From: Magnetococcales bacterium
Lineage (GTDB): Bacteria > Pseudomonadota > Magnetococcia > Magnetococcales > UBA8363
Direction of reading: 5' to 3'
DNA length: 23,808 nucleotides
Assembly (NCBI GenBank): GCA_015660855.1
Contig: JACSDG010000107.1
Span: 1-23,808 of the forward strand
The position numbers were made by a program, and so were the translations under genes. The notes beneath the pieces are model-generated. The model was not told where the DNA came from and did not search any database. It was given only the letters and a program-made list of their open reading frames with translations. Positions 4,095 through 21,110 of this stretch are shown here, one piece after another (positions within the stretch are counted from its first letter, which is position 1; each line of letters opens with the position of its first letter).

Positions 4095-4170
<76 letters not shown>

Positions 4171-4589: not shown

Positions 4590-4640
4590 CATAGGCGTGA
4601 ATAAACACAACCTATGTCAAACAGCTCACGAAGGAGCTAA

Positions 4641-4957: not shown

Positions 4958-4970
4958 TTAAATATCAATA
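4958..4970. repeat. 13-nt exact direct repeat TTAAATATCAATA (copy 2)
   Basis: Identical to 4836-4848. It lies adjacent to the palindrome ATGTTcatAACAT (4938-4950). Confidence 0.35.
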
Positions 4971-5041
4971 AAAGAAAATGTAATTTTTTTTCCGAAAGGA
5001 TCAACATGTGCAAAATTCGACACTAGGTTGAAATTTGCCCC

Positions 5042-8000
5042 TTAAAGGATTTTAGTCGGCGCAACCCCAGACTTTTTTCCCCCAAGAAAATCGAGCATCC
5101 GTTCCAAATGTTGCAGGCGCAACAGAGGATCTTCCCAGTACCGCTCACGAAAAGTAAGCAGATTTTTCTCCTGGTTAAACACCACCGAACCTCCACCCTG
5201 GCGAATCATGTCGATCAAAACGGCAGGCTGAATGTTGGGCTGGGAATGAAAGGTCAGGACGGCCCCTTTGGGACCCGCTTCCAGTTTGAGTACCTTGAGT
5301 TTGATACACCTTCGCTTGATGGCCACCACCTTCAATAAATTTTCCACCGAATCGGGCAGAGAGCCAAAACGATCGGTAAACTCCACCTTCATCTCCGCTG
5401 TTTCATCAGGCGTTTTTAATTCGGCCACCCGTTTGTACATGGTCAATCGTAAATTCATGTCGGTGATGTAAGTGTCGGGAATGTTGGTGGAAAGATTCAG
5501 ATTGATGATGGGGACAATTTCTTCCTCCTGGGGGCTGCCACCCCGATCGGCCATCGTCCCCGCACCATAAGCCTCCACCGCTTCCTTCAACATTTGGTTG
5601 TACAGTTCAAAACCTATTTCCTTGATGTGTCCCGATTGTTCTTCCCCCAACACGTTGCCTACGCCACGAATTTCCATGTCGTGGCTGGCAAGCATGAAAC
5701 CCGATCCCAACTCCCCCAAAGCTTCGATGGCCTCCAGACGTTTACGAGCATCGGCGGATTGGGCCTGAATGGGGGGGGTGAGCAGATAGGCATAAGCCCG
5801 GTGTCGCGAACGCCCCACCCGTCCGCGCAACTGGTGCAATTGGGCCAGACCAAAATGATCGGCCCGATGGATGATGATGGTATTGGCACTGGGAATGTCA
5901 ACCCCGTTCTCAATGATGGTGGTACACAGCAACAAGTTGAATTCCTGGCGATAAAAGGCCACCATGATCCGTTCAAGGCGACCAACGGGCATTTGACCGT
6001 GGGCGATGCCGATTTTGGCTTCGGGGACCAGTTCTGCGATGCGGATGGCCATGCGTTCAATTTCCTGGACCTTGTTGAACACATAAAACACCTGACCACC
6101 ACGATAAATTTCCCTGAGAATCGCCTCACGGATACGGGCGGAATTGTATTCAGTGACAAAGGTACGGATTGCCAGGCGATTGGTTGGGGGGGTGGCAATG
6201 ATGGATATGTCGCGAATGCCCGACATGGCCATATGCAAGGTGCGGGGAATGGGGGTTGCGGTCAAGGTCAGAATATCAACGTTGGCGCGCATGGCTTTAA
6301 TGCGTTCCTTGTGGCTGACACCAAAACGTTGCTCTTCATCAACTATGAGCAACCCCAAATCTTTGAAAGCGATGTCCTTTTGCAGCAGGCGATGGGTGCC
6401 GATGACAATATCCGCCTTGCCCTCACCAATTTTTTCCGCAAGTTCATCCATTTGTTTTGCGGTGCGAAACCGAGACATCATGGCGACGTTGACGGGATAG
6501 GGGGAAAACCGTCGGGAAAAAGTTTCGTAGTGTTGTTGCGCCAGAATGGTCGTGGGGGTAAGAACGGCCACCTGCTTGCCATCCATGACGCAACGAAACG
6601 CCGCACGCAAAGCCACCTCGGTCTTGCCAAACCCGACATCGCCGCAAATCAACCGGTCCATGGGACGCAACGAGGCCATGTCCGACAATACCGCTTCGAT
6701 GGCCTGGGCCTGATCGGGAGTTTCATCGTAGGGAAACGCAGTGGCAAATTCATGGTCCACGGCATGGGGACTGGAAAACCGGATTCCTTTGGCGGTTTCA
6801 CGCTTGGCTTGCACTTCGACCAGTTCCGCCGCCATTTCCAATAATTTTTTCTGGACCTTTTGGCGGGTTTTTTTCCATTTAGTCCCCCCCAGTTTGTCCA
6901 GAATCACTTCGTCAGACCCGGCGTATTTGCTGACCCGGTCCAGGTTTTCCACCGGCACGTAGAGTTTATCCGACCCGGCGTAGGTCAAAAGGAGAAAATC
7001 GTTTTGAATCCCCCCCACCGCCAAAGTATGCAATCCCCCGAAACAACCAATGCCATGGTCGGCATGAACGACAAAACTGCCCTCCTTCAAATTGCGAAAG
7101 GTGGCCAGGATACGGTCCAGGTATTGGGGATCGGTATGTTTGCGACGTGCCCTGGTTCCCAAAACGGCGTCTTCGTTGAAGACCGCCAGTCGCAGACCCG
7201 CATGGACAAAACCACTGGCCAAGTCCCCCAAAACCAATTGTATACGCTTGGAAGAAACCAACAGGGCATCCTGCCAACTTGCGGCACTTTCAGTCTTATG
7301 ACCATGATCGGCCAGCAATTCGGCCACCCGATCCCGTTGCCCCATGGAACGGGTGGAAATCACAATGCGGTGCTGCTGTTTTTGTTGCGTCTGAATAAAG
7401 TTGACAACCCGTTCCACCACGGAATGTCCCGACAGAACATCCTCGCCGGCAGGATCAAAAAAATCGGGAACGCGGTCAAATCCCAGAGAACAACCAGGTT
7501 CATCGGGATTGTCCTTGATTTGCAGTACCTGAAAATGCGCCAAAGATGCAAAAAGTTGCTGTGCCGTGATATAGAATCGGTGGACCGGCAACAGGCGCAG
7601 ATGGGACGCATCTTCTTCCTTGAGCAACAATTCCCTTTGGTTATTCACTTTTTCCTCGAAAGCGACCCCAGCCGGTTCCACATCGGCATCGAGAAGAATT
7701 TGGCTGCCTTCGGGAAGATAATCGACCAAAAGGTCGGTGGTGTCGTAGAACAGCGGCAAAAACCGCTCCATCCCCTGAAATTTTCCCCCGGTGGAAACCA
7801 CCTTGTAAATTTCATCGCTGGCCGCCTTGCCGCCAAAGGTTTCCCGGTAGAAAGTGCGAAAACAACGGATGGTCTCCTCGGTCAAAAGAACCTCGCTCAT
7901 GGGCAAGGTCTCAACCTTGGAATTTCTTTGGGTGGAACGTTGGGTTTGGATGTCAAAATGGCGGATGGTTTCCACCTGGTCGCCAAAAAGTTCCACCCGC

Positions 8001-8623
8001 ACCGGTTCTTCATAGCCGGGAGGAAACAGATCGATGATGCCACCACGCGCGGCGAATTCACCCGGTTCTTCAATCTGGGCGGAGGATCGGTAGCCGGAGG
8101 CGATTAAAAATTGTTTGAAGGCGGGAAGATCAATCTGATCCGATTCCCGGATGGCAAATCCATGTTGCGCCAAGAGATGCCGGGGCATGAGTCTTTGCAT
8201 CAGGGCCATGGGGGTCGTAATGATGATGGCTTGTTGGTATCCCGCATTATTTTCGGGGCGAACCACGCCAAATCCAAGCATTTGGGTCAGACGATACAGG
8301 GTGGCAATGCGTTCACCGACGATGGGACCATAGGGTGACAAAGGTTCAAACGGCAATATTTCCCACGCCGGAAAAGGGAGAATGGCGACGGGACGGTGTC
8401 GATCCCCCTGAAACAACAACAACTCTCGATAGATAGCCTCGGCCCGTGTGGTTTTTCCGGTGACGATGACCAGGGGGCTTGTGCGGGTCGCCGCCCACTC
8501 TTTGACAAACAAACTCAGCGTCGCCCCCGGCAAATCTTTCAGCACACCGAAAGGGTGACCAGGTGTTTTGGGCAGGGGAGCCAACAGTTTGGAAAACAGG
8601 GAAGCGAACGGGCTTGGATCCAT
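5042..8623 (-). CDS. mfd: Transcription-repair coupling factor Mfd
   Basis: 1193-aa ORF. It has an SF2 helicase core with Walker A 'GDVGFGKTEVALRAAF' and motif II 'LLIVDEEQRFGVSHKE'. The UvrB-homology N-terminus, RNA-polymerase-interacting region, TRG motif region and C-terminal D7 domain follow in the expected order. The length is typical for Mfd. Confidence 0.95.
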   Translation of the reverse strand: MDPSPFASLFSKLLAPLPKTPGHPFGVLKDLPGATLSLFVKEWAATRTSPLVIVTGKTTRAEAIYRELLLFQGDRHRPVAILPFPAWEILPFEPLSPYGPIVGERIATLYRLTQMLGFGVVRPENNAGYQQAIIITTPMALMQRLMPRHLLAQHGFAIRESDQIDLPAFKQFLIASGYRSSAQIEEPGEFAARGGIIDLFPPGYEEPVRVELFGDQVETIRHFDIQTQRSTQRNSKVETLPMSEVLLTEETIRCFRTFYRETFGGKAASDEIYKVVSTGGKFQGMERFLPLFYDTTDLLVDYLPEGSQILLDADVEPAGVAFEEKVNNQRELLLKEEDASHLRLLPVHRFYITAQQLFASLAHFQVLQIKDNPDEPGCSLGFDRVPDFFDPAGEDVLSGHSVVERVVNFIQTQQKQQHRIVISTRSMGQRDRVAELLADHGHKTESAASWQDALLVSSKRIQLVLGDLASGFVHAGLRLAVFNEDAVLGTRARRKHTDPQYLDRILATFRNLKEGSFVVHADHGIGCFGGLHTLAVGGIQNDFLLLTYAGSDKLYVPVENLDRVSKYAGSDEVILDKLGGTKWKKTRQKVQKKLLEMAAELVEVQAKRETAKGIRFSSPHAVDHEFATAFPYDETPDQAQAIEAVLSDMASLRPMDRLICGDVGFGKTEVALRAAFRCVMDGKQVAVLTPTTILAQQHYETFSRRFSPYPVNVAMMSRFRTAKQMDELAEKIGEGKADIVIGTHRLLQKDIAFKDLGLLIVDEEQRFGVSHKERIKAMRANVDILTLTATPIPRTLHMAMSGIRDISIIATPPTNRLAIRTFVTEYNSARIREAILREIYRGGQVFYVFNKVQEIERMAIRIAELVPEAKIGIAHGQMPVGRLERIMVAFYRQEFNLLLCTTIIENGVDIPSANTIIIHRADHFGLAQLHQLRGRVGRSRHRAYAYLLTPPIQAQSADARKRLEAIEALGELGSGFMLASHDMEIRGVGNVLGEEQSGHIKEIGFELYNQMLKEAVEAYGAGTMADRGGSPQEEEIVPIINLNLSTNIPDTYITDMNLRLTMYKRVAELKTPDETAEMKVEFTDRFGSLPDSVENLLKVVAIKRRCIKLKVLKLEAGPKGAVLTFHSQPNIQPAVLIDMIRQGGGSVVFNQEKNLLTFRERYWEDPLLRLQHLERMLDFLGGKKSGVAPTKIL

Positions 8624-8877
8624 AAGGCGTCAGTAACAACCACCATCGGCTTGCAGGACAGATCGATGGGGCATGGGTTAAGGTGGATTTGAGTGGGGAT
8701 GGTCGGACTGTTTAGGGCCCCTGGTCAAGGAATCATGATCAAATGACCCGCAATTATCGCCGCACCATTGGAAAAACCCTACCGGCTGACCCTGTCGGTT
8801 TGGGTTGACATGGGCGAAAAAACGTTTCAAAACTCAGCCAGATATTCAAGCTGAACAACCAACTGGAGGTCCATTCC

Positions 8878-9138
8878 ATGTCGCAAACTCAATGGTCCCT
8901 GCAAGATGCCAAAAATCGCTTCAGCCGTGTCGTTAAAGCCGCGCAGCAAGGTTACCCACAGACGGTTACCAAGCGTGGCATCCCTGCTGTCGTCGTTATC
9001 GCCACCGAAGAATACGAACGCCTGCAATGTCTCGAAAAAAGGCATCTTCCTTCGTTTATCGACCACCTCCTGGCGATACCGAAGGATGATGAGAGTTTTG
9101 AAAGCTCGATCATTCAACCTCGAAATTTAATTTTGTGA
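8878..9138 (+). CDS. Type II toxin-antitoxin system Phd/YefM-family antitoxin, apparently orphan
   Basis: 86-aa protein 'MSQTQWSLQDAKNRFSRVVKAAQQGYPQTVTKRGIPAVVVIATEEYERLQ' matches the Phd/YefM (VapB-type) antitoxin N-domain pattern (W-LQ-AK--FS-vv--A--G-PQ-vT--G-PaVVV----EYERL). A GGAGG SD lies 8 nt upstream (8865-8869). A possible -35 TTGACA is at 8805-8810. No PIN or ParE/RelE toxin ORF follows. Confidence 0.75.
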   Translation: MSQTQWSLQDAKNRFSRVVKAAQQGYPQTVTKRGIPAVVVIATEEYERLQCLEKRHLPSFIDHLLAIPKDDESFESSIIQPRNLIL

Positions 9139-10259
9139 GCCAGCGGATCCATCGCCAGATCATCGTTGTCGGCGGGGGACCGGGTGGATCCATGACGGCA
9201 TGGAAGCTGGCTTTGGCCGGATGTGAAGTCCTGCTCATCGAAGCCAAAACGTTTCCCCGCTCCAAACCCTGTGCCGGCTGGATCACCTGTGCTGCCATGC
9301 AGGCCATGGCGTTTGACGCAACCACCTATCCCCATCTTTTGGTTCCCATCACCCGTGTCGCCATTGGTCTTCACGATGGTTTGCACGTCACCCACTGGCC
9401 CAACCCGGTGAGCTACGGCATTTTGCGGCGGGAGCTGGATGATTTTCTCCTGCAACGGGCCAGGGCGGCGGGGGCGGAAATCTGGCTGGGACGGCGGGTG
9501 GATCGGGTTGAACTCGGACAGGATGATGCCCTCGTCGTTGTGGGCGCAACCCAGGTCCGTGGAAAATGGGTTGTGGGTGCCGGTGGTGCAAGCTGCCCGG
9601 TCGCACGCGCCGTGGGGGGGAAATCATTTTGGCAACACCGCACCATGGTCGCATCACAAACGAGCGAAACCCCCATAGGTATCCGCCAACTGGAAAATTC
9701 CGGGCTGGGGACCGGTCTGCCGGTGCTGTTTCCCGAACCGGAAGCAGATGGATATGCCTGGTATTTTACCAAGGGGGATCATCTAAACATTGGGGTGGGG
9801 GCGTTGGGTGGCGGACCTGCCATTCCCATGCGCCGGCAACGTTTCCTGGAACGTCTGCAACGCGCAGGCACCCTGGACCCCTCCTGGAAGCTGGCCCCGT
9901 TCATCGGCCATTCTTATGCCCTCTGGCGCGGATTGCGGCAACCGTTGGCGGGTCGCAACCATCTATTGGTGGGCGATGCCGCCGGCCTGGCACGGGATTT
10001 CAGTGGTGAAGGAATTGGACCCGCCGTCCGCAGTGGTTCCCTGGCGGCCAATTTTATCCTTTCCCAACCATCGGGCGATAGCGAAGCCAACGACCATACC
10101 CGACAATTGGCACGCCTCCAGGGCCATGGTTTGATCACAAAAATGGGGGGAATCCTGGAAAAACTGCCCCAATCCTTCCGCCGCACCCTGGTTGAAAGTC
10201 TGTGCCGATCCCCCTGGTTGCGGCGACGGTGGGTGTTGGAAAAAGCGTTCCTGGGGTAG
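9135..10259 (+). CDS. FAD-dependent oxidoreductase, geranylgeranyl reductase family
   Basis: 374-aa ORF. It has an N-terminal dinucleotide-binding fold 'IIVVGGGPGGSMTAW' and the 'KPCAGWI' motif. The geranylgeranyl-reductase-family signature 'HLLVGDAAGLARDFSGEGIGPAVRSGSLAA' is present. The GTG start at 9135 overlaps the antitoxin stop (GTGA). No earlier in-frame start can include the Rossmann motif. Confidence 0.75.
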   Translation: MSQRIHRQIIVVGGGPGGSMTAWKLALAGCEVLLIEAKTFPRSKPCAGWITCAAMQAMAFDATTYPHLLVPITRVAIGLHDGLHVTHWPNPVSYGILRRELDDFLLQRARAAGAEIWLGRRVDRVELGQDDALVVVGATQVRGKWVVGAGGASCPVARAVGGKSFWQHRTMVASQTSETPIGIRQLENSGLGTGLPVLFPEPEADGYAWYFTKGDHLNIGVGALGGGPAIPMRRQRFLERLQRAGTLDPSWKLAPFIGHSYALWRGLRQPLAGRNHLLVGDAAGLARDFSGEGIGPAVRSGSLAANFILSQPSGDSEANDHTRQLARLQGHGLITKMGGILEKLPQSFRRTLVESLCRSPWLRRRWVLEKAFLG

Positions 10260-10264
10260 GTCGG

Positions 10265-11419
10265 TCAGGCAAGATTTTCCAGGGCACTTTGGGTACGCCG
10301 AATCTGATGGAGCATTATTTTTTCACACCCGTCCCAACTTGTCTGCTCCCCCAGGCTAAAGCGTAGCCATTCGTTACGGCGCAACGAAAAATTGATGCCA
10401 CCATTGCCAAACATGCCGTGCATATGGGGATACCGTTGCAACCAGGCATGCACCCCCGGTCCCACATCGATGGCGCGACCCACGGGATAGGCCAAAAAAT
10501 GGATCAATGGAATTTTTTGTTGTTCCCAATAGTGGCTATTGTCTTCGATGGCCATGGCCACTTGGTCAGGGGTTTGATGCGAGAGGAGACGATGGGCGCG
10601 GGTATGGTTGCCGATTTCCCAGCCTGCGCGATGCAACCGCTCCACCCCATCCCGATCCAAGTGTACGTTAAGGTGGTTGGGATCTCCCAAGCATTCCCGG
10701 TAGGTTGCGTCGGTCACCTCCTCCATCACATCGGCGGCGTAATGGCCTTTCATCAGGCTTTGGAGTGCCGCCCCATCATCAGGCCAATCCTGTCCAGGCA
10801 ATTGCGCACGCAGGTTCGCCGCCAACCGCGCCGCGTATCCTTTAAGCACCAACACCCCCGCCAGAACTCGATACAAACTTTGGCGTTTCCGGGCAAACTC
10901 GGAACAGACAAAAACAGTCGGATGCAACCCCAATTGTTGAATAATGGGACCCGCCTGGGTCAGATTGTTGGTGAATCCATCATCAAAGGTCACCGCGAAA
11001 ACAGATTTCTCAAGACTCCCGTTGGCCCACAAACCTGGCAGTTCACTCAAGGCAACGGCGGGCATATGGGACAGCATAAATTTCAGTTGTTCTTGCAACT
11101 GTAAAATGGTCGTCTCCCCTTTGCGATAACCCTGTTCCCACAATTCACGCTGGTTGGGATCGACGACGCTGTGATAGAGCAGAATATAAACTCCCTTGGG
11201 AATTTTTTTTCTCACCCGTTTGACAAATATCCCAGGAAGGCACTTTCCGAGGCTTCGGGTAAGGAAAGATTGCGGCGGGGCGGGGGGAACCGGGGTTTTT
11301 TCAATGGTTTTTTGCAGATTCGGCCAATGCTCGTTCGGTGGGACGGTAGGGTGATTCATGGGGGAGGCCGGTTTTTTTTGGTCAGAGTAGACAAAATCCA
11401 GGGGATACGCCGCAACCAT
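10265..11419 (-). CDS. Polysaccharide deacetylase (NodB homology domain, carbohydrate esterase family 4)
   Basis: NodB motifs are present: 'TFDDGFTNN' (catalytic Asp and metal ligand) and 'GWEIGNHTRAH' (His ligands). The ORF-track start is 11419. An alternative ATG at 11359 (MNHPTV...) would overlap the upstream GT stop as ATGA. Neither start has a clear SD. Confidence 0.8.
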   Translation of the reverse strand: MVAAYPLDFVYSDQKKPASPMNHPTVPPNEHWPNLQKTIEKTPVPPAPPQSFLTRSLGKCLPGIFVKRVRKKIPKGVYILLYHSVVDPNQRELWEQGYRKGETTILQLQEQLKFMLSHMPAVALSELPGLWANGSLEKSVFAVTFDDGFTNNLTQAGPIIQQLGLHPTVFVCSEFARKRQSLYRVLAGVLVLKGYAARLAANLRAQLPGQDWPDDGAALQSLMKGHYAADVMEEVTDATYRECLGDPNHLNVHLDRDGVERLHRAGWEIGNHTRAHRLLSHQTPDQVAMAIEDNSHYWEQQKIPLIHFLAYPVGRAIDVGPGVHAWLQRYPHMHGMFGNGGINFSLRRNEWLRFSLGEQTSWDGCEKIMLHQIRRTQSALENLA

Positions 11420-12408
11420 CGACGCTGGGCCAAAATCCGGGGTCTCTGGGCCAGCAACTGTTGAAAAAGGTCATGGTAGTTCTGGCACATGCGTTGGGCG
11501 GTATGCGGAAAACCGACCATGCGTGCGGCCCACTGCGGGAAAGTCTGGAGCATTTCTTCCAGTTTGGCCTCCAAGGTTTCGGGGGTATATTCAATCCCAT
11601 AACCATTGCAGTATTCGACCATGGAGCCGCTGTCAAGGTAGAGCAATGGCAAACCGCACAACCCCGCCTCCAGGTTGTGGTTCCCCCCCGATTCGTGCCT
11701 GGCGGCGGTAATATAGGCATCGTGTCGGCGCAACTCCTGGGCGAGGGCCTCCCCCGAGAGCGGTTCGATAAGGCGCGCCCGTTCAAAATGAAAATCCTTA
11801 GGCACGCGACCAATATAGGTAAATTCAATCCGCTCTGCCCATTGGGGATCGGCGAGCAATCGATCCAATTGTTGGTAAACGTCAAAGCCTTTGTTCCAAT
11901 GGTTGCTCCAATGATGGGTCACCAGTTTTAATAGTTTTTCCTGTTTTTTTTGGGGGGGTTCTCCAGGTTGCCAAAGGTGATGATCGCCGCCGTTGAGGAT
12001 GACACTCCAGGGACGCAAACGATTAAAACCGGATTCCAGGTAACGATCTTTGACCCATTGACTGACGAAGACGGTGTGGTCGGCGATTTGGTTGGCGTGA
12101 ATGCGATAATGATTGAATGTTTTGGCAAGGTCGTCACGGGCTTCGCTGGTGTTGTTGATGCGGTGGACAACGATGGCGTTGGGATTTTTCAGCAGGAGAT
12201 AGAGGAGGATATCACGATGGTCATAGGCGGAGATACGCAACCGGGCATCGGGTTCGGCCAACAGAATGATATCCAAATCCCGGTCTTCCAGGTCATGGCT
12301 CACCCGTTCCCCCTGGTCTCCCAGGTATTGCGTCAAAGCCTTGCCAAACTGATTTCCCCCACCCCAAGCCCCCGATTGGAGGCTCATGCCGATGCTTATT
12401 TTTGTCAA
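11356..12408 (-). CDS. Glycosyltransferase, GT-B fold (GT4-like)
   Basis: 350-aa ORF. The N-terminus 'ISIGMSLQSGAWGGGNQFGKALTQYL' resembles the GT4 N-domain. The C-terminal block 'ESGGNHNLEAGLCGLPLLYLDSG' resembles the GT-B E-x7-E/donor-binding region. The TTG start at 12408 is preceded by a GAGGA SD and overlaps the upstream stop as TTGA. A C7A8 tract (plus 11944-11958) encodes PPQKK. Confidence 0.65.
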   Translation of the reverse strand: MTKISIGMSLQSGAWGGGNQFGKALTQYLGDQGERVSHDLEDRDLDIILLAEPDARLRISAYDHRDILLYLLLKNPNAIVVHRINNTSEARDDLAKTFNHYRIHANQIADHTVFVSQWVKDRYLESGFNRLRPWSVILNGGDHHLWQPGEPPQKKQEKLLKLVTHHWSNHWNKGFDVYQQLDRLLADPQWAERIEFTYIGRVPKDFHFERARLIEPLSGEALAQELRRHDAYITAARHESGGNHNLEAGLCGLPLLYLDSGSMVEYCNGYGIEYTPETLEAKLEEMLQTFPQWAARMVGFPHTAQRMCQNYHDLFQQLLAQRPRILAQRRWLRRIPWILSTLTKKNRPPP

Positions 12409-13361
12409 TGTTTTTCCTCACTGTTGCATGCGGCGTTGAGATTCCGCCTGATCTCATCGGAAGTGCTTTGAGAATCCAGTTCATCGACAATTTCATAAAT
12501 TCTTTCCCAATAGGGGGGCAATTCTCCCAACACCCGATCCCGTTGCAAAGGTTTATCGGAAATAGCCAAGTGCAGCGTATAGGGAAGGGTAAACATGGGA
12601 GGAAACAGTTCCTTCCTGGGCACCCCCTCCCGGGAATCGTCATCCAAAGGCAAGCAATAACTCTTAACCACATCCACCCCCCGTTGCAACGCCTCCCTGG
12701 TCTCTGGTTGATCATGAAAATGCGAGGGAACGGGGGAAAAAATAATCATTGCCTTGGAGGAATACAAACCTAGCCGTATGTTCTCATCACGGAGACTTTT
12801 CAATGTTTCATCAAGACCGGCAATGTTTTGGTGATTCAGGCCGGAGACCAGAACGATCCGGTCTGCCATATATCCCATGGTTAAATCCACCAAATCCAGA
12901 TAACCGGGACAACAATCGATGAGCACATAATCAACTCCACGATCAGCCCCTTCCGGCTTGAACGCCGCCAAATCTTCAATAAATTTTTGCGCATAAAAAC
13001 GCAACGCCCATTCTTCCAGGCTTTCGTTTGCACGTCCTTCCTTGGGGGGAACTTTGTGGGTTCTCGATTCACTGAATTTTTGAATCTGAAACTGGTTGGT
13101 TTTACCTGCCGGCAATACAAGAAAACGCCCGTTGGATCCCCATATTCCTTTGGGATCATCGGACTTCCTGTCGCGTAAAAGTTTGCTCGGGGGGTAAAAA
13201 TTAAAAGTGCCTTTTTCAAGATCCCGACTAGAATAGAATTCGGCAAGCAAATCACCGACGCCCAATTCATTCAATTTTTCATCGGGATGTTTACGCAGGT
13301 TGGGGGAATAGCTGATGCCGGGGGCATGGATATCCATATCCACCAAGTGCCGTGCGCCCAA
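12405..13361 (-). CDS. ParA/MinD-fold P-loop NTPase-like protein with degenerate Walker A (putative pseudo-ATPase)
   Basis: A strong Walker B / ParA signature 'RGVDYVLIDCCPGYLDLVDLTMGYMADRIVLVS' is present, and the 'FLVLPAG' segment corresponds to the ParA switch region. The position where the deviant Walker A 'KGGVGKT' should sit (residues ~8-20) reads 'DMDIHAPGISYSPNL', with no lysines and no GK[ST]. No Walker A is found in other frames upstream. The start is uncertain: the TTG at 13361 lies only 2 nt after a GGGAGGAG SD. Confidence 0.5.
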   Translation of the reverse strand: MGARHLVDMDIHAPGISYSPNLRKHPDEKLNELGVGDLLAEFYSSRDLEKGTFNFYPPSKLLRDRKSDDPKGIWGSNGRFLVLPAGKTNQFQIQKFSESRTHKVPPKEGRANESLEEWALRFYAQKFIEDLAAFKPEGADRGVDYVLIDCCPGYLDLVDLTMGYMADRIVLVSGLNHQNIAGLDETLKSLRDENIRLGLYSSKAMIIFSPVPSHFHDQPETREALQRGVDVVKSYCLPLDDDSREGVPRKELFPPMFTLPYTLHLAISDKPLQRDRVLGELPPYWERIYEIVDELDSQSTSDEIRRNLNAACNSEEKH

Positions 13362-13415
13362 CTCCTCCCTTGAATGAATAGAAGGTGTAAACTTTCATAT
13401 AATGACCTATTGCCT

Positions 13416-14105
13416 TCATGCCGCGCTTTTAAAGTCAACCACAACCACATTTGGGAACGGACTTTTAAACACATCCTGAATTCCCCCCATTTCTTTTGAA
13501 GAAGAATTCTGTCCCGCTGCCGCCGCAGCAATGCGTTTCTCTCTACCAGCATCGGGAAAATAATCGAGTGCCCGTGGCCCGAAGGTTAAATATTTTTCAC
13601 GTCCCACTTTGTGCCGGGAGATCAGTTCCCAATCTTCCAACTGATTCAAAATGCGCGTCAGATTGGCCGGCTTCAGGGCCAACTTTTCACCCAGATCTTT
13701 TTGTAAAACATATTTTGCCTCACCGATCTGTTCCATGATCTTGCACACATGCTCCCGGTTGAGGATTTCCTCCGGAATTTCCATGTGCCGCGCCACCACT
13801 CTGTCGTGCAGAACATTCTGAAATGCCAACCAACGGGTAGCATAGGCTTCGCTCATGCCGTTGAGTATTTTTTTCCGGGAAGCGTCCGCAGCCACACTTT
13901 CCAGGTGCAGAGACAATGTTTCCATCTCTTTAACATGGGCATGATCCCACAGGGCAATATACAGCTTCCAACGGTAGGCAAAATCCAATTTCTGGGCAAT
14001 CGATTCATCCCATCGCTCAATTTTCTTAACAGCATCTAAAATGCCGTCAAGATCGGATATTTCCGAAAGCCAAAGCGGGTCTATCGTGTCAAGGTCAATC
14101 GCCAT
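13416..14105 (-). CDS. Hypothetical protein with central winged-helix (MarR-like) DNA-binding motif
   Basis: 229-aa ORF. The segment 'YVLQKDLGEKLALKPANLTRILNQLEDWELISRHKVGREKYLTF' has the helix-turn-helix plus wing pattern of MarR/PadR-type wHTH. The flanking domains have no motif I recognise. It sits directly upstream of the ParA-like gene in the same frame, but the two are separated by several stop codons. Confidence 0.45.
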   Translation of the reverse strand: MAIDLDTIDPLWLSEISDLDGILDAVKKIERWDESIAQKLDFAYRWKLYIALWDHAHVKEMETLSLHLESVAADASRKKILNGMSEAYATRWLAFQNVLHDRVVARHMEIPEEILNREHVCKIMEQIGEAKYVLQKDLGEKLALKPANLTRILNQLEDWELISRHKVGREKYLTFGPRALDYFPDAGREKRIAAAAAGQNSSSKEMGGIQDVFKSPFPNVVVVDFKSAA

Positions 14106-14429
14106 GAAGAAAACCTTTGTAAATCATTTTACTGAAGACGCGCACACCATCATTCACAACACTTTACACCATCTTCGGTTTTCCTGCACACGCCTTCGTT
14201 ATTGCGCATATAAAAACCTCAATTAATAAAAAAACTCACAATAGATTTCCAAGCGTAGCAAAGGCATTGATCATTTTCAACACGAATCGCTCACTCACGC
14301 AAAAAAAACGGCATTAACCTTGCATTAATCATGAAGAAAATCCACGCAGACTGTTGGCCCCCATCCTGCCACCCTCGCGCCAAATTAAAAAATGAACAAC
14401 CTTCAACCCGTTCTTCCAAGGTGCCTGTC

Positions 14430-15194
14430 ATGATGGTCGATTACATCCCATGCGCTGACTCCAGTACAGTAAAAAAATGTGCCAGAAAAATTCCTTGGCT
14501 CCCCTTCCTTCTGGTTCTCGCCTGCGTTTGCCAGCCGGTCCTCGCCGAAGAAGGCATCTTCAACGATGAACGAAATTCCGGTTTCAACAATCGCTGGGTC
14601 GAACCCAATAATACCAGTGCCCATGAAATCGGTTTGTCCAAAGGTGCCGCAAAACCATCGTTCGTCCCCGCCCACCACGTCATCCATTGGCGTTGGGATA
14701 AGACTGTCTTTTCCTATTCCAACTATTCATGGGGTATGCAATGGCGCGGTTGCAACGAACCCATCGATTTCCTGTCCATCCTCTATATGGACCGGCCACC
14801 CGCAGAAATGACTTTGGAATATTATAAAAATTTTACCAGACGCGCCGAACAGGTGGCCCTCAAATTTGAACTCATCCTGGCCGATGACGATTTCTCTGGC
14901 AAAGCCATCAACGTCCGGTTTGATATGGTCGGCGACATCCCCTCCGAAGATGTCAATATTCTTGAACACCTCTACTCCCACGACCATCCCCACCCCCCCA
15001 TCACCATCTACCCCAAAGCCCCCAATCTGGGATTGGAAAAAAAACGTCCCTATGAAGTCATCATCAACTTCATCGACTTCGCATTCCTGGAGCAAGGATT
15101 GGATCTGACAAAAATGAAACAAATTGTGTTCAGCATACCCAAAGATGGACCGAAAAAAGGAGATATCTTTCTCTACAATATTCGTATCGAATAA
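14430..15194 (+). CDS. Secreted hypothetical protein (Sec signal peptide)
   Basis: The ORF track gives 14331..15194. The preferred start is the ATG at 14430 (MMVDY...), with an AAGGTG SD 6 nt upstream. The signal peptide is 'KKCARKIPWLPFLLVLACVCQPVLA|EEG'. The mature protein is hydrophilic with an 'HDHPHPP' patch and a C-terminus 'GDIFLYNIRIE'. I recognise no family. Confidence 0.5.
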   Translation: MMVDYIPCADSSTVKKCARKIPWLPFLLVLACVCQPVLAEEGIFNDERNSGFNNRWVEPNNTSAHEIGLSKGAAKPSFVPAHHVIHWRWDKTVFSYSNYSWGMQWRGCNEPIDFLSILYMDRPPAEMTLEYYKNFTRRAEQVALKFELILADDDFSGKAINVRFDMVGDIPSEDVNILEHLYSHDHPHPPITIYPKAPNLGLEKKRPYEVIINFIDFAFLEQGLDLTKMKQIVFSIPKDGPKKGDIFLYNIRIE

Positions 15195-16298: not shown

Positions 16299-17459
16299 TT
16301 ATTCAATGCCGCTTTGATTTGGCTCTCCGAAAAACCACCAGAGTCCACCGATAAGCGCACCGACGGCCACGACCGTCAGGGTGATCTTGACCCAACTGTA
16401 GGGTCGTTCTCCCTGAACTTCGCCGCTGCGACCGTTGATTAAAAATGGATAACCGCGATTGCCAAAACGATAGGTACTGAGCCAAATGGGCAACAGAATG
16501 TGTTTGAAGGTGACATCGCTGTATCGGGTGTTCAGATGGTCAATCCTTTGCTCATCGCCGCCAATGTCGCGTTGAACCAATCTTTTGATGGTTTCGGCCA
16601 TCCGTTCCGTGGCCTGACCGAATCCTTCTTGCAATCCCAACCGATAACTCTGGGCGCAAAATCCACTGACATAGTCGGAATCGTAGGCCACAAGATTTTC
16701 CAAATCCCAGGGTTCCAGATGGTTGGCCATGTCCTTGGGCAAAAGATCACTCGCCATGACCAGGACATCGTCAAACCCATGGGCCACATGACCGCTGGTG
16801 GAAGTCCATCGGGTGCGGGTAACGGTGCGGGTTTTTTGGACGGTTTGTCCCCCTTCGGTGGTGGTATAGGTCTCCTGTACATGGTAATGAACCCCCCTTT
16901 GCCCCCGATAATCACTGTGGGTTTGGGTATCGAAGGTCCAATAGGGGACGTACAAACCATTCAAGGGGGTATCACTGCGTGCCGCCATTTTAAGTTTGTT
17001 GGGGGCAAACCAGCGGCTTGAAACCCATTTTACAAAATGATCACGGGCTTGTTTTTTATCCACCTTGAAAGGTAGCAGGCTCGAAGGTTTGATCTGACGC
17101 TTGGACGTTTCCTGAAGATCCATGGCCATGCCGCAAAAAGGACAGGCCAAGGCAATGGTTCCCCGTTCAGGCTTCACCGTGGCACCACAACCGGCGCACT
17201 GGACCACGACAACGTCCTCTACGCGACCGTCCGCTTCGGCTTTTTGCAGCCAAGCGTCAAAATCAAGCTCTTTGATTTCTCCCCTGCTGAGTGGCACCTC
17301 CTGGGCATGGCCACAATGTTCGCAAACCAGGGAAGTGGTTCCGGGGACGAAGCCCAAGTGGGCACCGCATTGGGTACAAGGGAATTGCTGCGGCCCAGGG
17401 TTGGTATGACCCGGTACGGTGGGAATTTTTTTTTCCTGCGGGTGCGACTTTGGGTTCAT
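16299..17459 (-). CDS. Double zinc-ribbon protein with C-terminal transmembrane anchor (B. subtilis YdjG-like)
   Basis: There are two CxxC...CxxC ribbons: 'CTQCGAHL...CEHCGHA' and 'CAGCGATV...CPFCGMA'. A conserved-looking middle domain includes 'LYVPYWTFDTQ', and the C-terminal TM helix is 'ITLTVVAVGALIGGLWWFF'. The preferred start is the ATG at 17459 (MNPKS), with an AGGAAG SD, 13 nt after the SPFH gene stop. The ORF track extends to 17501. An A9 run (17426-17434) lies in codons ~9-12. Confidence 0.6.
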   Translation of the reverse strand: MNPKSHPQEKKIPTVPGHTNPGPQQFPCTQCGAHLGFVPGTTSLVCEHCGHAQEVPLSRGEIKELDFDAWLQKAEADGRVEDVVVVQCAGCGATVKPERGTIALACPFCGMAMDLQETSKRQIKPSSLLPFKVDKKQARDHFVKWVSSRWFAPNKLKMAARSDTPLNGLYVPYWTFDTQTHSDYRGQRGVHYHVQETYTTTEGGQTVQKTRTVTRTRWTSTSGHVAHGFDDVLVMASDLLPKDMANHLEPWDLENLVAYDSDYVSGFCAQSYRLGLQEGFGQATERMAETIKRLVQRDIGGDEQRIDHLNTRYSDVTFKHILLPIWLSTYRFGNRGYPFLINGRSGEVQGERPYSWVKITLTVVAVGALIGGLWWFFGEPNQSGIE

Positions 17460-17472
17460 GGAGACTTCCTTA

Positions 17473-18570
17473 TCAAGGAACGGGCAAAGGTGGCGGTCCA
17501 CCCGCAGCAGGTTGCGTCACCAGAGTTCCCCATTCGGGGAGTTGCGCAAGTGCAACCCATTGGGGCATGCCGGGTTTCCAGGCAAGGGTTTGGCCCGAAA
17601 TCTGACCGGAGGCAAGCCATTGCCGCACCCCCGCCAGATCATAAGGCCCTTGCTGTTGCCCCTGGATGACCAGATGATACTGGGATGCGGTCGGAAGTGG
17701 GGGCGGCGCAAGTGGAGCTTGTATAGCGGGAGCGGCTGCCTGTTGCCCCATGGCCATTCCTATCCCCATCCCCATCATCCCACCGGCCTGACCTGGGTTT
17801 TCCGCCGCTTTTTCCATGGCCACGGCGGTCTGGAAACGATTGAACGCCCCCAAGTCGCCAATCATCCCCATGCTGGTTCGTTTATCCAACATTTTTTCCA
17901 CTTCTTCGGGGAGGGAAATATTTTCCACCAGGGGTTTCGCAAGTTCCAGGCCGTACTCCTGAAACTCGGGACCGATGCGTTTTTGCAGCATCACCCCAAG
18001 CTCGTCGTATTGGGTGGAAAGATCCAACAGAGGAATTCGGCTTTCCGCCAGGGCGTCGGCAAATCGGGAGACAAACAGGGATCTTAACTGTTCGGTGATT
18101 TCATCCAGAGTGAAACGACCGTCGGTACCGACCACCGCCGCCACCAGTTTTCCAGGGTCTGCCACCCGTATGGAAAAACTGCCAAAACCACGCAGACGGA
18201 CCGGACCAAATTCAGGGTCGCGCAAAATGATCGGGTTCTTGGTACCCCATTTAAGATCGGTAAAGGTGCGCAGACTGACAAAATAGACTTCCGCTTTGAA
18301 CGGGCTGGAAAAACCGTATTTCCATCCCTTGAGGGTGGTAAGAACGGGAATGTTGCGGGTTTCCAAAGTGTAGAGGCCGGGATTGAAACCGTCGGCGAGT
18401 TGGCCTTCGTTGACAAAAAGGGCATGCTGCCCCGCACGCACCACCAGTTGGGCACCATATTTGATTTCGTTGTCGTAGCGTTCAAAACGATAGACGAGGG
18501 TGTCGGCAGAATCATCGGTCCATTCGATGATATCGATGAATTCCCCGGCGATTTTTGAAAAAAAACCCAT
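17473..18570 (-). CDS. SPFH/band-7 domain protein of the COG4260 'virion core protein-like' type (YdjI-like) with C-terminal GYF-like (DUF4339) domain
   Basis: The start 'MGFFSKIAGEFIDIIEWTDDS' is the characteristic N-terminus of this SPFH subfamily, and the SPFH core follows. A Gly/Met-rich linker leads into 'YHLVIQGQQQGPYDLAGVRQWLASGQISGQTLAWKPGMPQWVALAQLPE' (GYF-like) and a Pro-rich tail. A GGAGA SD lies 7 nt upstream of the ATG at 18570. The ORF-track N-terminal extension to 18816 has no support. An A8/T8 run occupies codons 3-5. Confidence 0.75.
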   Translation of the reverse strand: MGFFSKIAGEFIDIIEWTDDSADTLVYRFERYDNEIKYGAQLVVRAGQHALFVNEGQLADGFNPGLYTLETRNIPVLTTLKGWKYGFSSPFKAEVYFVSLRTFTDLKWGTKNPIILRDPEFGPVRLRGFGSFSIRVADPGKLVAAVVGTDGRFTLDEITEQLRSLFVSRFADALAESRIPLLDLSTQYDELGVMLQKRIGPEFQEYGLELAKPLVENISLPEEVEKMLDKRTSMGMIGDLGAFNRFQTAVAMEKAAENPGQAGGMMGMGIGMAMGQQAAAPAIQAPLAPPPLPTASQYHLVIQGQQQGPYDLAGVRQWLASGQISGQTLAWKPGMPQWVALAQLPEWGTLVTQPAAGGPPPLPVP

Positions 18571-19059
18571 AATTTTTTCTCCCCGTTCCCCGTCGGTTGA
18601 TGATGCCATCCCTTCTTGCAAGGACGGCATGGCTTGGCATCCTGTTGGCGTCAATCTATCATTTTCAACGGCTTCACTGCACCTTAAAAGCAGGGGCCGC
18701 TCCACCATTCTACCCGTTTTATTTGACAATTCCAGCCGGCGGCGACCCACCGTCGGTGCCCTGCCTTCATCCATATGGATTTCTACGCCATGGAGAAAAA
18801 AGTTAAAACTATACATTATTAATTACCAATGAATGCAAAAAACGTACTTGGATTCATTCATAATTTAAATTATTATTTGCAAGTCATTCTTGGTTTTATT
18901 ATTATTAAAATTGGATGGCAAGTTGTTGCCTGGGGGACTCTTTGACTTTTCTTTTTTTAAAGGGTATAGTCCCCACCCTGGCATTTCGTGGTGGATGCGA
19001 AAGGAGCTGTATGATATTATTGTGGATCAACAGGGAGATGCAACAAAGGCTGTCGTTTC

Positions 19060-19317: not shown

Positions 19318-19752
19318 ATGAGAAGACCCAAGCGCACATTCAACCCAAAAAGAGAGGTTCGTCCTGTACCGGGTACAGACACCGAGCGGGAAAATCTTGT
19401 GAGTTTGGCATCCAAGGTTGTCTATGGTGGTAATCCCGAGCACAAACGCAACCCCGGTGACTTTGGCTTAACTCCTCCGAGTAGTCCAAGACAGGGAAAG
19501 ACTTTGTGTGATTCGGTCGGTATTTTTACTCAGCGAGAGTCTACCAAGTTGCTTCGGGAAGGGGTGCGACGCGGGGTAATCAGTCGCCGTGAAAAAAATG
19601 GATGGCCTCAAAATGTATGGGCTGTTGACGCCAACGGTATGCCCATGGAAGCTCAATTGGAAAACGCTGAACGGGGGATTTATCATGGTTACCCAATGCC
19701 AGAAACCGATATTTTCCGAGAAAAGATTCTAGAACGCTGGGGGCAACATTGA
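19318..19752 (+). CDS. Hypothetical small basic protein (144 aa), first gene of an uncharacterised two-gene cassette
   Basis: The N-terminus 'MRRPKRTFNPKREVRP' is strongly basic. It is followed by 'KVVYGGNPEHKRNPGDFG' and the C-terminal 'ERGIYHGYPMPETD'. I recognise no family. The RBS is weak. The stop overlaps the downstream start (TTGA). Confidence 0.45.
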   Translation: MRRPKRTFNPKREVRPVPGTDTERENLVSLASKVVYGGNPEHKRNPGDFGLTPPSSPRQGKTLCDSVGIFTQRESTKLLREGVRRGVISRREKNGWPQNVWAVDANGMPMEAQLENAERGIYHGYPMPETDIFREKILERWGQH

Positions 19753-21110
19753 GTGAACTCTTCGTCATCACTCCCCTGAAGTGGACACCCGCTGTCTACG
19801 GACCGGAAGAGGTACGGCAAACGTCAGCAATATTACAGTTCACCGTCAATAACCGTCTGGTAACCAGGGTCGATAACGATTGGACAAGAGTAGTCGATAA
19901 AACAGTATGTCTTTCTGCATACCCTCTAGCTCTTTGGCTTGTTTCTTCTTGGTGGCGTTTGCATTGGGAACCGGTACCAGCTGGGATACCCAATATTGAA
20001 TGGCGTATAGCCCACGAAATGGGGAGCGCAGGCCATGGGTTTCTCTGGCCACCTGTGCGGTTCGAGTCTGATGGGGAGATGGTCACAGTCCATTGTACGC
20101 CATCCTCGGCTGAGTCCAATGAACCCATTCGTTACCTGAATCGGCTGCACGAGTCAATACCATCCGCTGAATTTACCAAAGGGATTGTGGATTTTATCCA
20201 AATTGTCATCGACAGGCTGGATTCCGTTGGTATTCAGGATACGGAGTTGCACACACTGTGGCGAGAAGTGGGCGGCGAACGGACAAACCCAAAGACAGCT
20301 TCTTACCGCAAAATGGAGGCCCTGCTCGGGTTTGACCCCGACGAAGGGCCGGAAACGATTGTTGATACACTCCTGAATTTGTCTATGGCGGTTGGGGATG
20401 CGGCAGTAGCAGAGATTGCTGCCAGTACGTCTTCCCCCCTGCACTTGAATCAGGTGTTGGAGAGTGCCAGATCTGCGGGTCTCCAAGGAAACCTCTCTGG
20501 TATTTATGCCCTGATGCCGCAAGCAACCTGGTGTCATTACACAACGGCAACCCCCTGGGACCGGGGCCGAGACTTGGCCCGAACAGTACGTCAACACTTG
20601 AGCTTATATTCTGCGCCCGTCTCCAACCGCCTCCTGAGTGACATTTTAGGGCTAGAGGAACGGGGTCTGGCCGATGGTGATGCGCCTATGGCCGGGACTG
20701 ATTTAAGCTTGGCAATCAAATCGGAAGAGGGGGATCAGGTCAATCTGCTTTTTCGCCGTAAGCGTCCAAACGGGCGACGTTTCGAGGTAGCCCGCTGGAT
20801 GGCTGATGTTCTGCTATCCTCAGCCCAAGACCGTTGGCTACCCGCCACTAACGCAAAAACGGCCCGACAAAAAGTTCAGCGCGCATTTGCCGCTGAGTTC
20901 CTGTCCCCAATTGATGCCCTGAAAACTTACCTGGACAACGATCTGGCCGACGAAGATCGCATTGAGGAGGCTGGAGGTTATTTTGGGGTTTCCCCGTTAA
21001 CCGTCCGGAGCCAATTGGTCAACCATGGTTTGGTTCCGTGGAACGTCATAGGCAACGGTTCTACTCCAAGGGATTCTTGGTTGGAAGAGTGGGAAAAGGT
21101 AAAAGCCTGA
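19749..21110 (+). CDS. Hypothetical protein with C-terminal ImmA/IrrE (M78 peptidase, COG2856)-like domain lacking the HEXXH zinc site
   Basis: 453-aa ORF. The first ~340 aa are unrecognised. The last ~110 aa 'RRFEVARWMADVLLSS-(20)-QKVQRAFAAEFLSPIDALKTYL...GGYFGVSPLTVRSQLVNHGLV' align in spacing and residues with the ImmA/IrrE core 'RFTLAHELGHLLLH-(~25)-EANxFAAELLMP...FGVS.....RL..LGLI'. HELGH is replaced by RWMAD and the downstream Glu ligand is absent. The TTG start is uncertain. Confidence 0.55.
   Translation: MSELFVITPLKWTPAVYGPEEVRQTSAILQFTVNNRLVTRVDNDWTRVVDKTVCLSAYPLALWLVSSWWRLHWEPVPAGIPNIEWRIAHEMGSAGHGFLWPPVRFESDGEMVTVHCTPSSAESNEPIRYLNRLHESIPSAEFTKGIVDFIQIVIDRLDSVGIQDTELHTLWREVGGERTNPKTASYRKMEALLGFDPDEGPETIVDTLLNLSMAVGDAAVAEIAASTSSPLHLNQVLESARSAGLQGNLSGIYALMPQATWCHYTTATPWDRGRDLARTVRQHLSLYSAPVSNRLLSDILGLEERGLADGDAPMAGTDLSLAIKSEEGDQVNLLFRRKRPNGRRFEVARWMADVLLSSAQDRWLPATNAKTARQKVQRAFAAEFLSPIDALKTYLDNDLADEDRIEEAGGYFGVSPLTVRSQLVNHGLVPWNVIGNGSTPRDSWLEEWEKVKA

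Follow-up and report, generated by a model that had tools for sequence, protein, structure and literature searches.

A KGGVGR-motif MinD/ParA-fold ATPase gene split by a 50-nt deletion next to its winged-helix partner gene in a Magnetococcales contig

Does this Magnetococcales bacterium encode, among its polysaccharide genes, a MinD/ParA-like protein that has lost its ATP-binding lysine and works with a DNA-binding partner of its own? The window that we analysed (the whole stretch of 23,808 nucleotides, contig JACSDG010000107.1) contains on the minus strand an ORF at 12405..13361 that starts with TTG and stays open for 318 codons. Its product contains DYVLIDCCPGYLDLV...ADRIVLVS and no GK[ST], so the ORF call and the translation agree with the initial annotation in that a ParA/MinD Walker B/switch region is found here in a protein that has no canonical P-loop. 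The TGA stop of this ORF overlaps, as TTGA, the TTG with which the downstream ORF begins (11356..12408, minus strand, 350 aa), which confirms the overlap that had been reported. On the other side lies an ORF for a 229-aa winged-helix (wHTH) protein at 13416..14105, also on the minus strand. The 318-aa product had been proposed to be a pseudo-ATPase or a highly divergent P-loop protein, and the pair a regulatory variant or a decaying fusion gene.

However, the P-loop described as missing is encoded in the same DNA. In a different frame from that of the 318-aa ORF, translation from the ATG at 13398 gives MKVYTFYSFKGGVGRTALGGYGYPCPRHQLFPQPA followed by a stop; positions 13398..13345 encode the P-loop MKVYTFYSFKGGVGRTAL and positions 13351..13371 the motif KGGVGRT, both on the minus strand, and the claim that P-loop and signature lysine had been lost does not hold. 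The 35-aa ORF that carries the motif (13291..13398, minus strand) is a 5' fragment of a KGGVGR ATPase gene. Its residues 1-18 are identical to those of an intact 347-aa protein (P0001), and it follows the correct frame as far as 13346, running out of frame beyond that until the stop. The 3' part of the same gene (12405..13343, minus strand) is identical to residues 36-347 of P0001 and carries the Walker A' (DMD), the Walker B (DYVLID) and the NxQN motif. The 318-aa ORF is this 3' part plus six spurious codons, an out-of-frame reading over the P-loop DNA. The segment DMDIHAPG, to which the Walker A position had been assigned, aligns instead to the Walker A'/switch I DxD of MinD (VVVVDMDIHAPG here, VLAVDGDLTMAN in 1g3q). 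A P-loop is thus present but offset from its assigned place, and the "lysine-less" protein is the 3' remainder of a broken gene, read from a fortuitous TTG.

The intact protein comes from a near-identical MAG contig, DUZR01000023.1 (ENA ERZ27245799 k141_222306, 11,478 nt, Magnetococcales), that shows a single mismatch with the window in 11.4 kb. DNA alignment, BLAST HSPs and a base-level check all place the difference between the two genes at one junction, between 13346 and 13345 on the minus strand, where the 50 nt TTTGACTCATCTTGCTGTGCAGTGGGCCGACAGGGGGCGCGTCGTGGTGG of DUZR01000023.1 are missing from the window. The junction reads GGCACT directly followed by TGGTGGAT, without the 50-nt insert, and at the protein level P0001 and the window gene are identical except for LTHLAVQWADRGRVVVV. 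The deletion takes out residues 19-35 (helix alpha1 and strand beta2, which in the AlphaFold model of P0001 correspond to helix 15-28 and strand 32-38) and shifts the frame. Since this 17-residue segment is present in all homologues, the intact form is the ancestral one. As judged from these alignments the window gene is a copy broken by a 50-nt deletion rather than a novel type of protein, and as encoded here it is unable to give a folded ATPase. We therefore favor, with a probability of roughly 0.85, the reading that the window holds a wHTH gene and an NF047398 ATPase gene (a family described below) broken by this deletion, a decaying relic that merely lies beside glycosyltransferase genes. 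The locus would originally have been a minus-strand pair, the gene of a MarR-like wHTH protein followed by that of the KGGVGR ATPase, in which the loss of 50 nt right after the P-loop would have left a 35-aa P-loop stub and the 318-aa ORF. The suspicion that the locus was decaying is, for this sequence, borne out. The apparent lysine-less pseudo-ATPase is then a consequence of ORF calling across the deletion, and as originally described it matters little; what the window does reveal is a gene-breaking indel when it is set against a public assembly of this organism.

It is a separate matter whether the organism itself carries the deletion or whether this assembly alone does, and the sequence may be reconciled with both. 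The deletion could be an artefact of assembly or consensus calling, or else a variant carried by a minority of the population and picked up by the assembler, the organism itself having the intact 347-aa gene; we consider this the less likely origin, though one to be taken seriously, and as it concerns only how the break arose it is compatible with the rest of the preferred reading. In its favor, the independent assembly of essentially the same genome is intact with only one other base different, the missing segment is exactly 50 nt long with almost no flanking microhomology (1 nt), and the remainder of the window ATPase gene has no other lesions. On the other hand, clean 50-nt deletions in unique sequence are rarely made by short-read assemblers, and the right end of this one falls inside a (GTG)4 run, the kind of site at which replication does make errors. 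Furthermore, even P0001 has DCCPG at a place where the family has DxRTG and is found without C-terminal repeats or a nitrilase partner, which fits a relaxed constraint on this gene. When JGI metagenome contigs were scanned for exact copies of a 38-mer upstream of the junction none was found, which left no third assembly to compare, and in the genome-contig scan the best of the matches listed was 51% identical.

P0001 belongs to a family that NCBI has already named. It scores 108.8 bits against NCBIfam NF047398, "KGGVGR-motif variant AAA ATPase", above the curated cut-off of 90 bits. Because the deletion splits the gene no single ORF of the window reaches that value: the 318-aa ORF obtains 52.2 bits (model positions 36-189) and the 35-aa stub 24.1 bits (model positions 2-18). 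A conceptual in-frame join of both fragments gives 73.6 bits, also below the cut-off. By descent, to judge from its identity with P0001, the window locus is nonetheless a member of NF047398, although no window ORF qualifies. The family is found in at least 431 loci among species representatives. A literature search for the motif name returned nothing relevant, and we found neither published biochemistry nor any experimental characterisation of the family.

Seventy-four family sequences were compared position by position. The signature lysine K10 is present in all of them (74/74), and G11, G12, G14, D37, D39 and D178 are likewise invariant. The canonical GK[ST] lysine is replaced by arginine (R15) in 73 of the 74 and by glutamine in the other one. 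The motif encoded on the minus strand of the window, FYSFKGGVGRT, is accordingly a KGGVGR[ST] P-loop that ends in GRT. The supposed lack of a lysine was therefore half correct: the signature lysine is there, and the canonical P-loop lysine is indeed absent, as it is family-wide. A Walker A region was found intact at the orthologous locus, in P0001, with Arg replacing Lys. P0001 shares with the family the FYSFKGGVGR[ST] P-loop, the DxDLxAPG Walker A' region, the Walker B Asp and NxQN; the DCCPG mentioned above is its deviation from near-invariant residues. All the ATPase relatives start with MK(V/I)xxFYSFKGG. With arginine in place of the catalytic lysine throughout the family, ATP binding with slow turnover would be expected, and since the signature lysine, the Walker A'/B Asp and the P-loop glycines are kept, the intact ATPase is probably a nucleotide-gated dimerisation switch. 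It probably acts with the HTH protein encoded directly upstream.

The AlphaFold model of P0001 (pLDDT 84.8) has a MinD/ParA (SIMIBI) fold, with the DxD of Walker A' and the Walker B Asp in place (D37, D39 and D178), and its top Foldseek matches are FlhG, MinD, FleN, Soj and ParA, with a probability of 1.0 and target TM-scores of 0.63-0.75. The MinD/ParA assignment made originally is thus upheld by the NF047398 match, the model and the structural matches to FlhG, MinD, FleN and Soj. With these proteins P0001 shares, besides the fold, the signature lysine, the P-loop glycines, the Walker A'/B Asp and the association with a partner protein. It differs from them in the Arg at the GK[ST] lysine, in large insertions (around residues 45-165), in having no MinE/ParB-type partner and in having relatives with TPR or WD40 fusions. 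Other NCBIfam profiles stayed far from their cut-offs: 35.8 against 180 for the ParA partition profile NF041546, 20.5 against 212.9 for MinD (TIGR01968) and 20.2 against 157.85 for BcsQ (TIGR03371), all three confined to the P-loop region. BcsRQ (6yay) was also among the structural matches. BcsQ and TadZ/CpaE have the MinD/ParA fold with a degenerate Walker A and are nucleotide-bound scaffolds rather than fast ATPases, and BcsQ is part of a polysaccharide system in which its partner is a small protein whose gene lies directly upstream. However, BcsQ is devoid of both lysines, while the KGGVGR family keeps the signature one, and there are no bcs or tad genes near the ATPase gene of the window.

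The 229-aa protein encoded upstream matches Pfam MarR (PF01047) with 27.7 bits, above the gathering score of 24.6, over residues 123-165. It consists of an N-terminal helical region (approximately residues 1-110) and a MarR-like winged helix (approximately 118-176), which the AlphaFold model renders as three helices and a beta-hairpin at 118-175 with pLDDT of 79-84; outside the wHTH the model is of low confidence (pLDDT 57). Typical MarR proteins have about 140-160 aa with flanking dimerisation helices, whereas this one has 229 aa and resembles them only in the wHTH core. A homology search with the single sequence gave no match, and a profile search gave nine. Homologues were located directly upstream of the ATPase gene in seven loci, at 32-36% identity in L002, L004 and L005 and with weaker similarity in L068, L065 and L061. 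Thus the proposal that the wHTH protein is a dedicated partner finds support in the comparison, and by the criterion of conserved position its gene is a genuine, conserved and separate partner of the ATPase. In 13 further loci, including Rhizobium plasmids, a different HTH protein (MqsA-like/HTH_3) is encoded directly upstream of the ATPase. IclR-type regulators encoded about 3 kb upstream in Binatia loci were considered as partners and discarded, as these are generic wHTH matches and not adjacent.

In the relatives the pair is preceded by a gene (c4) of the nitrilase superfamily, which matches Pfam CN_hydrolase with up to 32.9 bits and conserves the catalytic residues (E/K/E/C columns). In L005 an intact set of three genes (nitrilase-like, wHTH, ATPase-TPR) occupies 3866..8856. 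Most of the ATPase relatives have 400-1800 aa and end in TPR or WD40 repeats; only 2 of 49 complete ones are shorter than 400 aa. P0001 and the window copy have neither the C-terminal repeats nor the nitrilase partner. Stand-alone proteins of about 300-340 aa do occur in the wider family; rather than being truncated, the short form without repeats may naturally stand alone. An architecture of nitrilase, wHTH, ATPase and repeats resembles, by analogy, that typical of sensor-NTPase-effector conflict systems or toxin-antitoxin-like modules. P0001 also has a weak match (55 bits) to the PADLOC defence candidate PDC-M28B, a name for which a literature search ('PDC-M28') returned nothing relevant. 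'Inactive MinD/ParA-like' domains have been described in conflict systems (Kaur et al. 2020, PMC7159879). The likeness to those systems lies in the relatives, which combine a variant MinD/ParA domain with TPR/WD40 repeats, a putative effector and an HTH protein; the window copy lacks repeats and effector, and its link to them or to PDC-M28 would be one of analogy.

On the strength of the architecture, the weak PADLOC match and this analogy we tentatively propose, as a possibility rather than as the expected outcome, that an HTH protein and a KGGVGR ATPase form the core of an uncharacterised three-component family of toxin-antitoxin-like or defence modules, of which the window would hold a stripped-down and inactivated relic. 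As effector there would be the nitrilase-superfamily protein or else a small protein encoded beside the MqsA-like antitoxin. It would be accompanied by the HTH regulator or antitoxin and by an Arg-for-Lys MinD/ParA-fold switch fused to TPR/WD40 sensor repeats, whose ATPase domain would be a slow, nucleotide-gated dimerisation switch controlling the HTH protein or the effector. Of these parts the window copy would have lost the nitrilase gene and the repeats, and its reading frame as well in the present sequence; compared with other NF047398 members it is split, repeat-less and has DCCPG for DxRTG. Most likely the locus is what remains, reduced and inactivated, of an uncharacterised conflict-like module of three genes, or else an intact gene altered by an assembly artefact. 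The KGGVGR family is widespread, has an arginine for the catalytic P-loop lysine while retaining the signature lysine, and nearly always comes with an HTH protein encoded upstream, with sensor repeats and with putative effectors. A new conflict-system or switch mechanism may therefore reasonably be sought in the intact relatives, and not in the window copy.

The intact pair could also be a positioning or partition system of ParA/ParB type, the wHTH protein being the adaptor to DNA or cargo and the ATPase the motor. The nearest folds (MinD, FlhG, FleN, Soj, ParA) all have a partner protein that often binds DNA, and HTH genes of two different kinds are found repeatedly in the position directly upstream. 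Nevertheless we find this unlikely: the canonical catalytic lysine is replaced family-wide, the score with the ParA partition HMM falls well short as given above, the adaptor gene comes first, and relatives of 400-1800 aa with TPR/WD40 repeats, linked to nitrilase-superfamily proteins or MqsA-like antitoxins, are unlike partition systems.

Much less probable is a genuine P-loop-less and lysine-less pseudo-ATPase, translated from the TTG at 13361 and serving, together with the wHTH protein, as a regulatory variation on the BY-kinase-type ATPases that polysaccharide loci carry. The 318 open codons, the overlap with the next ORF and a GGAGG upstream of the TTG speak for it, but the GGAGG lies only 2 nt from the start codon, the P-loop sits upstream in the other frame and the intact allele differs by the 50-nt deletion. 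Going by the P0001 model, the 318-aa product would be left without strand beta1, P-loop, helix alpha1 and strand beta2 of the core. BY-kinases (Wzc, CpsD, EpsG) do belong to the same broad class of MinD-like P-loop NTPases and are encoded near glycosyltransferase genes. Yet P0001 has no GK[ST], no C-terminal tyrosine cluster (two scattered Tyr in the last 40 residues, none in the tail) and no transmembrane activator partner, and it matches neither TIGR01007 nor TIGR03018 in NCBIfam at E <= 0.01; the idea of a degenerate BY-kinase paralogue has to be abandoned. The relatives do not adjoin polysaccharide genes either: none of those in the window recurs beside them, and the comparison therefore lends no support to the polysaccharide-regulator role that had been suggested.

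A fused ancestor, that is, a single wHTH-ParA polypeptide later split by stop codons, is more improbable still. The two ORFs do lie in the same frame, as the initial annotation observed, and are 54 nt apart with three stops between them. However, this frame relation is a mere by-product of the deletion (50 mod 3 = 2), the wHTH and ATPase genes being in different frames in the intact allele. In L001 (the DUZR01000023.1 locus), L002, L004, L005, L061, L065 and L068 both are separate genes with their own starts, so that the search for an HTH-ParA fusion in these seven loci found no continuous polypeptide, and the conserved MK(V/I)xxFYSFKGG is the protein start in all relatives. Least credible of all is a programmed +1 ribosomal frameshift at CUU-G joining the P-loop stub to the downstream frame: at the junction GCA CTT G GTG a +1 shift after CUU would restore that frame, but the zero frame offers no slow or stop codon, the SD-like GGGAGGAG lies 17 nt upstream instead of about 3 nt, the product would still be deprived of 17 conserved core residues and the intact allele needs no frameshift.

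The 350-aa downstream ORF is weakly glycosyltransferase-like. The GT4 label it had received goes back solely to sub-threshold Pfam GT1 matches (19.2 bits where the cut-off is 27, and 18.4 where it is 26.4) and is not sustained; the ORF gave no match in NCBIfam or PDB, and a tblastn search beside the ATPase relatives matched only L001. A scan for promoters and terminators in 10200..14400 yielded no more than expected by chance. The wHTH, ATPase, glycosyltransferase-like and deacetylase genes overlap one another or lie end to end, as would the genes of a single transcript, and a lineage-specific tie of the wHTH-ATPase pair to polysaccharide genes is therefore conceivable.

All of the relevant genes (the ATPase pieces, the winged-helix gene and the downstream ORF) are on the minus strand. 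The 318-aa ORF (12405..13361, TTG start) carries DYVLIDCCPGYLDLV...ADRIVLVS without any GK[ST], as the initial annotation had described from its translation, and its stop does overlap the TTG start of the next, glycosyltransferase-like ORF (11356..12408). Three in-frame stops in 54 nt separate it from the 229-aa ORF of the winged-helix gene (13416..14105). However, the P-loop and signature lysine that were claimed to be missing are present in another frame. Translation of the other frames revealed a 35-aa stub starting at an ATG at 13398, MKVYTFYSFKGGVGRTALGGYGYPCPRHQLFPQPA followed by a stop, and the sequence KGGVGRT (13351..13371) is a textbook deviant Walker A including the signature lysine. 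Its DNA sits immediately 5' of the 318-aa ORF, with which it partly overlaps in a different frame.

A homology search with a conceptual in-frame join of both pieces as query retrieved an intact protein of 347 aa (P0001) from another Magnetococcales MAG (GCA_013349385.1, contig DUZR01000023.1). P0001 consists of the two window pieces, identical, plus 17 residues, LTHLAVQWADRGRVVVV, between ...GRTAL and VDMDIHAPG.... In the DNA alignment exactly 50 nt, TTTGACTCATCTTGCTGTGCAGTGGGCCGACAGGGGGCGCGTCGTGGTGG, are missing from the window, and since 50 mod 3 is 2 the frame is shifted. The deletion junction lies between 13346 and 13345, with a microhomology of 1 nt, and its right end falls within a (GTG)4 run. 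Through the same shift the 3' remainder came to share a frame with the winged-helix gene, so that the common frame noted across the stops holds in the window and not in the intact allele, where the frames differ. The 17-residue segment is present in all homologues, indicating that the intact allele is the ancestral state. According to the AlphaFold model of P0001 (pLDDT 84.8, pTM 0.86), the deletion takes out the larger part of helix 15-28 and strand 32-38, the elements of the nucleotide-binding core that come after the P-loop; without them, both the 35-aa stub and the 318-aa remainder are excluded as functional ATPases. The decay of the locus that had been suspected is borne out in this sequence, in the form of a gene split by the deletion.

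The contig carrying P0001 is a public MAG contig of 11,478 nt, and the window reaches past both its ends. Window positions 2405..13767 correspond to it with one mismatch and the 50-nt deletion, so essentially the same genome is represented. The single base difference in the remaining 11.4 kb, at 8692, is intergenic, upstream of mfd. That the deletion is an assembly artefact or a minority variant is an alternative that we consider less likely than not. A metagenome scan for the deletion region gave no match to arbitrate between the two. Whether the deletion is biological or artefactual, the "lysine-less ParA" of 318 aa does not represent a protein type of its own. It belongs to a gene of an already named family, the KGGVGR-motif variant AAA ATPases (NCBIfam NF047398), here in disrupted form; no experimental characterisation of this family was found in the literature searched. 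The initial observation is thus confirmed in part, and its interpretation partly supported.

Against the NF047398 cut-off of 90 bits, P0001 scored 108.8 bits, the conceptual join 73.6, the 318-aa ORF 52.2 (model positions 36-189 only) and the stub 24.1 (positions 2-18). Pfam gave only weak AAA_31, CbiA and ParA similarity. In a PDB sequence search SFKGGVGRT aligned with SGKGGTGKT of Pyrococcus MinD (1g3q) and VVVVDMDIHAPG with VLAVDGDLTMAN, so DMDIHAPG, previously placed at the Walker A site, belongs to the Walker A'/switch I DxD region. Foldseek neighbours of the P0001 model were FlhG, MinD, FleN, Soj and ParA (probability 1.0, target TM-score 0.63-0.75), agreeing with the family match and the PDB alignment on the MinD/ParA fold originally proposed. 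Among 74 aligned family members K10, G11, G12, G14, D37 and D178 are invariant and R15 is found in 73 (Gln in P0004), from which it follows that the signature lysine is kept and the catalytic lysine replaced family-wide. By analogy with ParA/MinD K-to-R mutants, we would expect the KGGVGR family to bind nucleotide but to hydrolyse it poorly. A BY-kinase role can be dismissed, P0001 having neither a BY-kinase HMM match nor a C-terminal tyrosine cluster.

A scan of species-representative genomes detected the family at no fewer than 431 loci. In close relatives (L005, L006, L010) the ATPase domain occupies the first ~330 residues of a protein of 850-1000 aa whose C-terminal part has TPR repeats, and in Rickettsiales locus L068 it is part of a 1777-aa protein with WD40 propellers; of 49 complete relatives, just 2 fall below 400 aa by crude ORF calling. 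The 229-aa partner has a MarR-type winged helix (Pfam 27.7 bits, cut-off 24.6; residues 118-176 modelled at pLDDT about 80) after an N-terminal helical region of 110 residues of unassigned type. Genes for its homologues immediately precede the ATPase gene in Magnetococcales L002, L004 and L005 (32-36% identity, full alignment) and, more distantly related, in Rickettsiales (L068), Nitrospinales (L065) and Thermoanaerobaculaceae (L061) MAGs, which upholds the idea of a dedicated DNA-binding partner. The proposed decaying fusion is unsupported, because the two genes are separate in every homologous locus.

Loci with the winged-helix gene have, ahead of it, a conserved gene for a nitrilase (CN_hydrolase) superfamily protein of 440-530 aa (Pfam up to 32.9 bits, cut-off 23.2; E, K, E and C columns conserved). 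The order of this three-gene module is nitrilase-superfamily protein (with a ~200-aa N-terminal extension), winged-helix protein and KGGVGR ATPase with TPR or WD40 repeats. It is found at L005 (3866..8856) and also at L002, L004, L061, L065, L068, L047 and L009, scattered among Magnetococcales, Rickettsiales, Nitrospinales, Thermoanaerobaculaceae and Competibacteraceae MAGs; no description of it was found in the literature searched. It would combine a putative effector enzyme with an HTH protein and a variant NTPase that bears sensor repeats, and in this architecture it looks more like conflict or toxin-antitoxin-like modules than like partition or polysaccharide machinery. P0001 matched the PADLOC defence candidate PDC-M28B weakly (55 bits). 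"Inactive MinD/ParA-like" domains have been described in NTP-dependent conflict systems (Kaur et al. 2020, PMC7159879), which may be of the same family as the KGGVGR ATPases. The intact relatives, which may represent a new switch or conflict module, are of moderate interest; this locus itself is of low interest.

We read the window pair as a reduced relic of this module that lies beside glycosyltransferase genes by chance, because no nitrilase-like gene or TPR remnant was found in the window by tblastn, the ATPase is a short form, it alone has DCCPG where the family has a near-invariant DxRTG, and its neighbours do not recur. On its upstream side the winged-helix gene is bordered only by a 225-nt spacer and then a divergent ORF. 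The polysaccharide role initially suggested is not sustained, as no neighbouring window gene (glycosyltransferase-like, polysaccharide deacetylase, FAD enzyme) recurs beside any relative of the ATPase, and the surroundings are a loose mix of GT4s, methyltransferases, deacetylase, asparagine synthase, mfd, a Phd/YefM antitoxin gene and an SPFH protein. Only sub-threshold matches underlie the naming of the downstream ORF as "GT4". The winged-helix, ATPase, glycosyltransferase-like and deacetylase genes are tightly spaced, and a lineage-specific co-transcription is possible.

Other upstream partners were found elsewhere in the family. A different HTH protein, MqsA-antitoxin-like (HTH_3), lies directly upstream of the ATPase in 13 further loci (L040, L043, L045, L051, L062, L064 and others), including Rhizobium plasmids (L086, R. 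gallicum pRgalR602b, 3492..5860). Its gene often overlaps that of the 450-650-aa ATPase and often follows one for a conserved protein of ~120 aa, a possible toxin without a Pfam match. Another Magnetococcales clade (L006-L008, L012-L014; clusters c5, c9) has a conserved upstream pair of ~270-aa and ~320-aa proteins, and the cyanobacterial clade (L022-L050, cluster c1; 20 loci, downstream of groES-groEL) a likewise conserved ~145-aa upstream protein, all without Pfam match.

As for the other window genes, the longest deacetylase ORF (10265..11419, minus) shares 64 nt with the end of the glycosyltransferase-like ORF; its true start probably lies further downstream, given that the products in public annotations are shorter (316 or 364 aa). 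A GT4 glycosyltransferase (1711..2832, minus) passes Pfam GT4-conflict (PF20706, 28.6 bits, cut-off 26), and general GT1 models score far higher. ORFs 14331..15194 (plus, 287 aa) and 19749..21110 (plus, 453 aa) have no Pfam match; the former, divergent from the winged-helix gene, carries a hydrophobic segment at its N-terminus, and no homologue of it lies beside the relatives. An 86-aa Phd/YefM-type antitoxin gene (8878..9138, plus) overlaps by 4 nt an FAD-binding monooxygenase-like gene (9135..10259, plus), which follows it in place of a recognisable toxin gene. Finally, a 447-aa SPFH/Band 7 protein with a C-terminal GYF_2 domain (17473..18816, minus) overlaps a 400-aa protein with zinc-ribbon matches (16299..17501, minus), possibly a two-gene unit separate from the ATPase finding.
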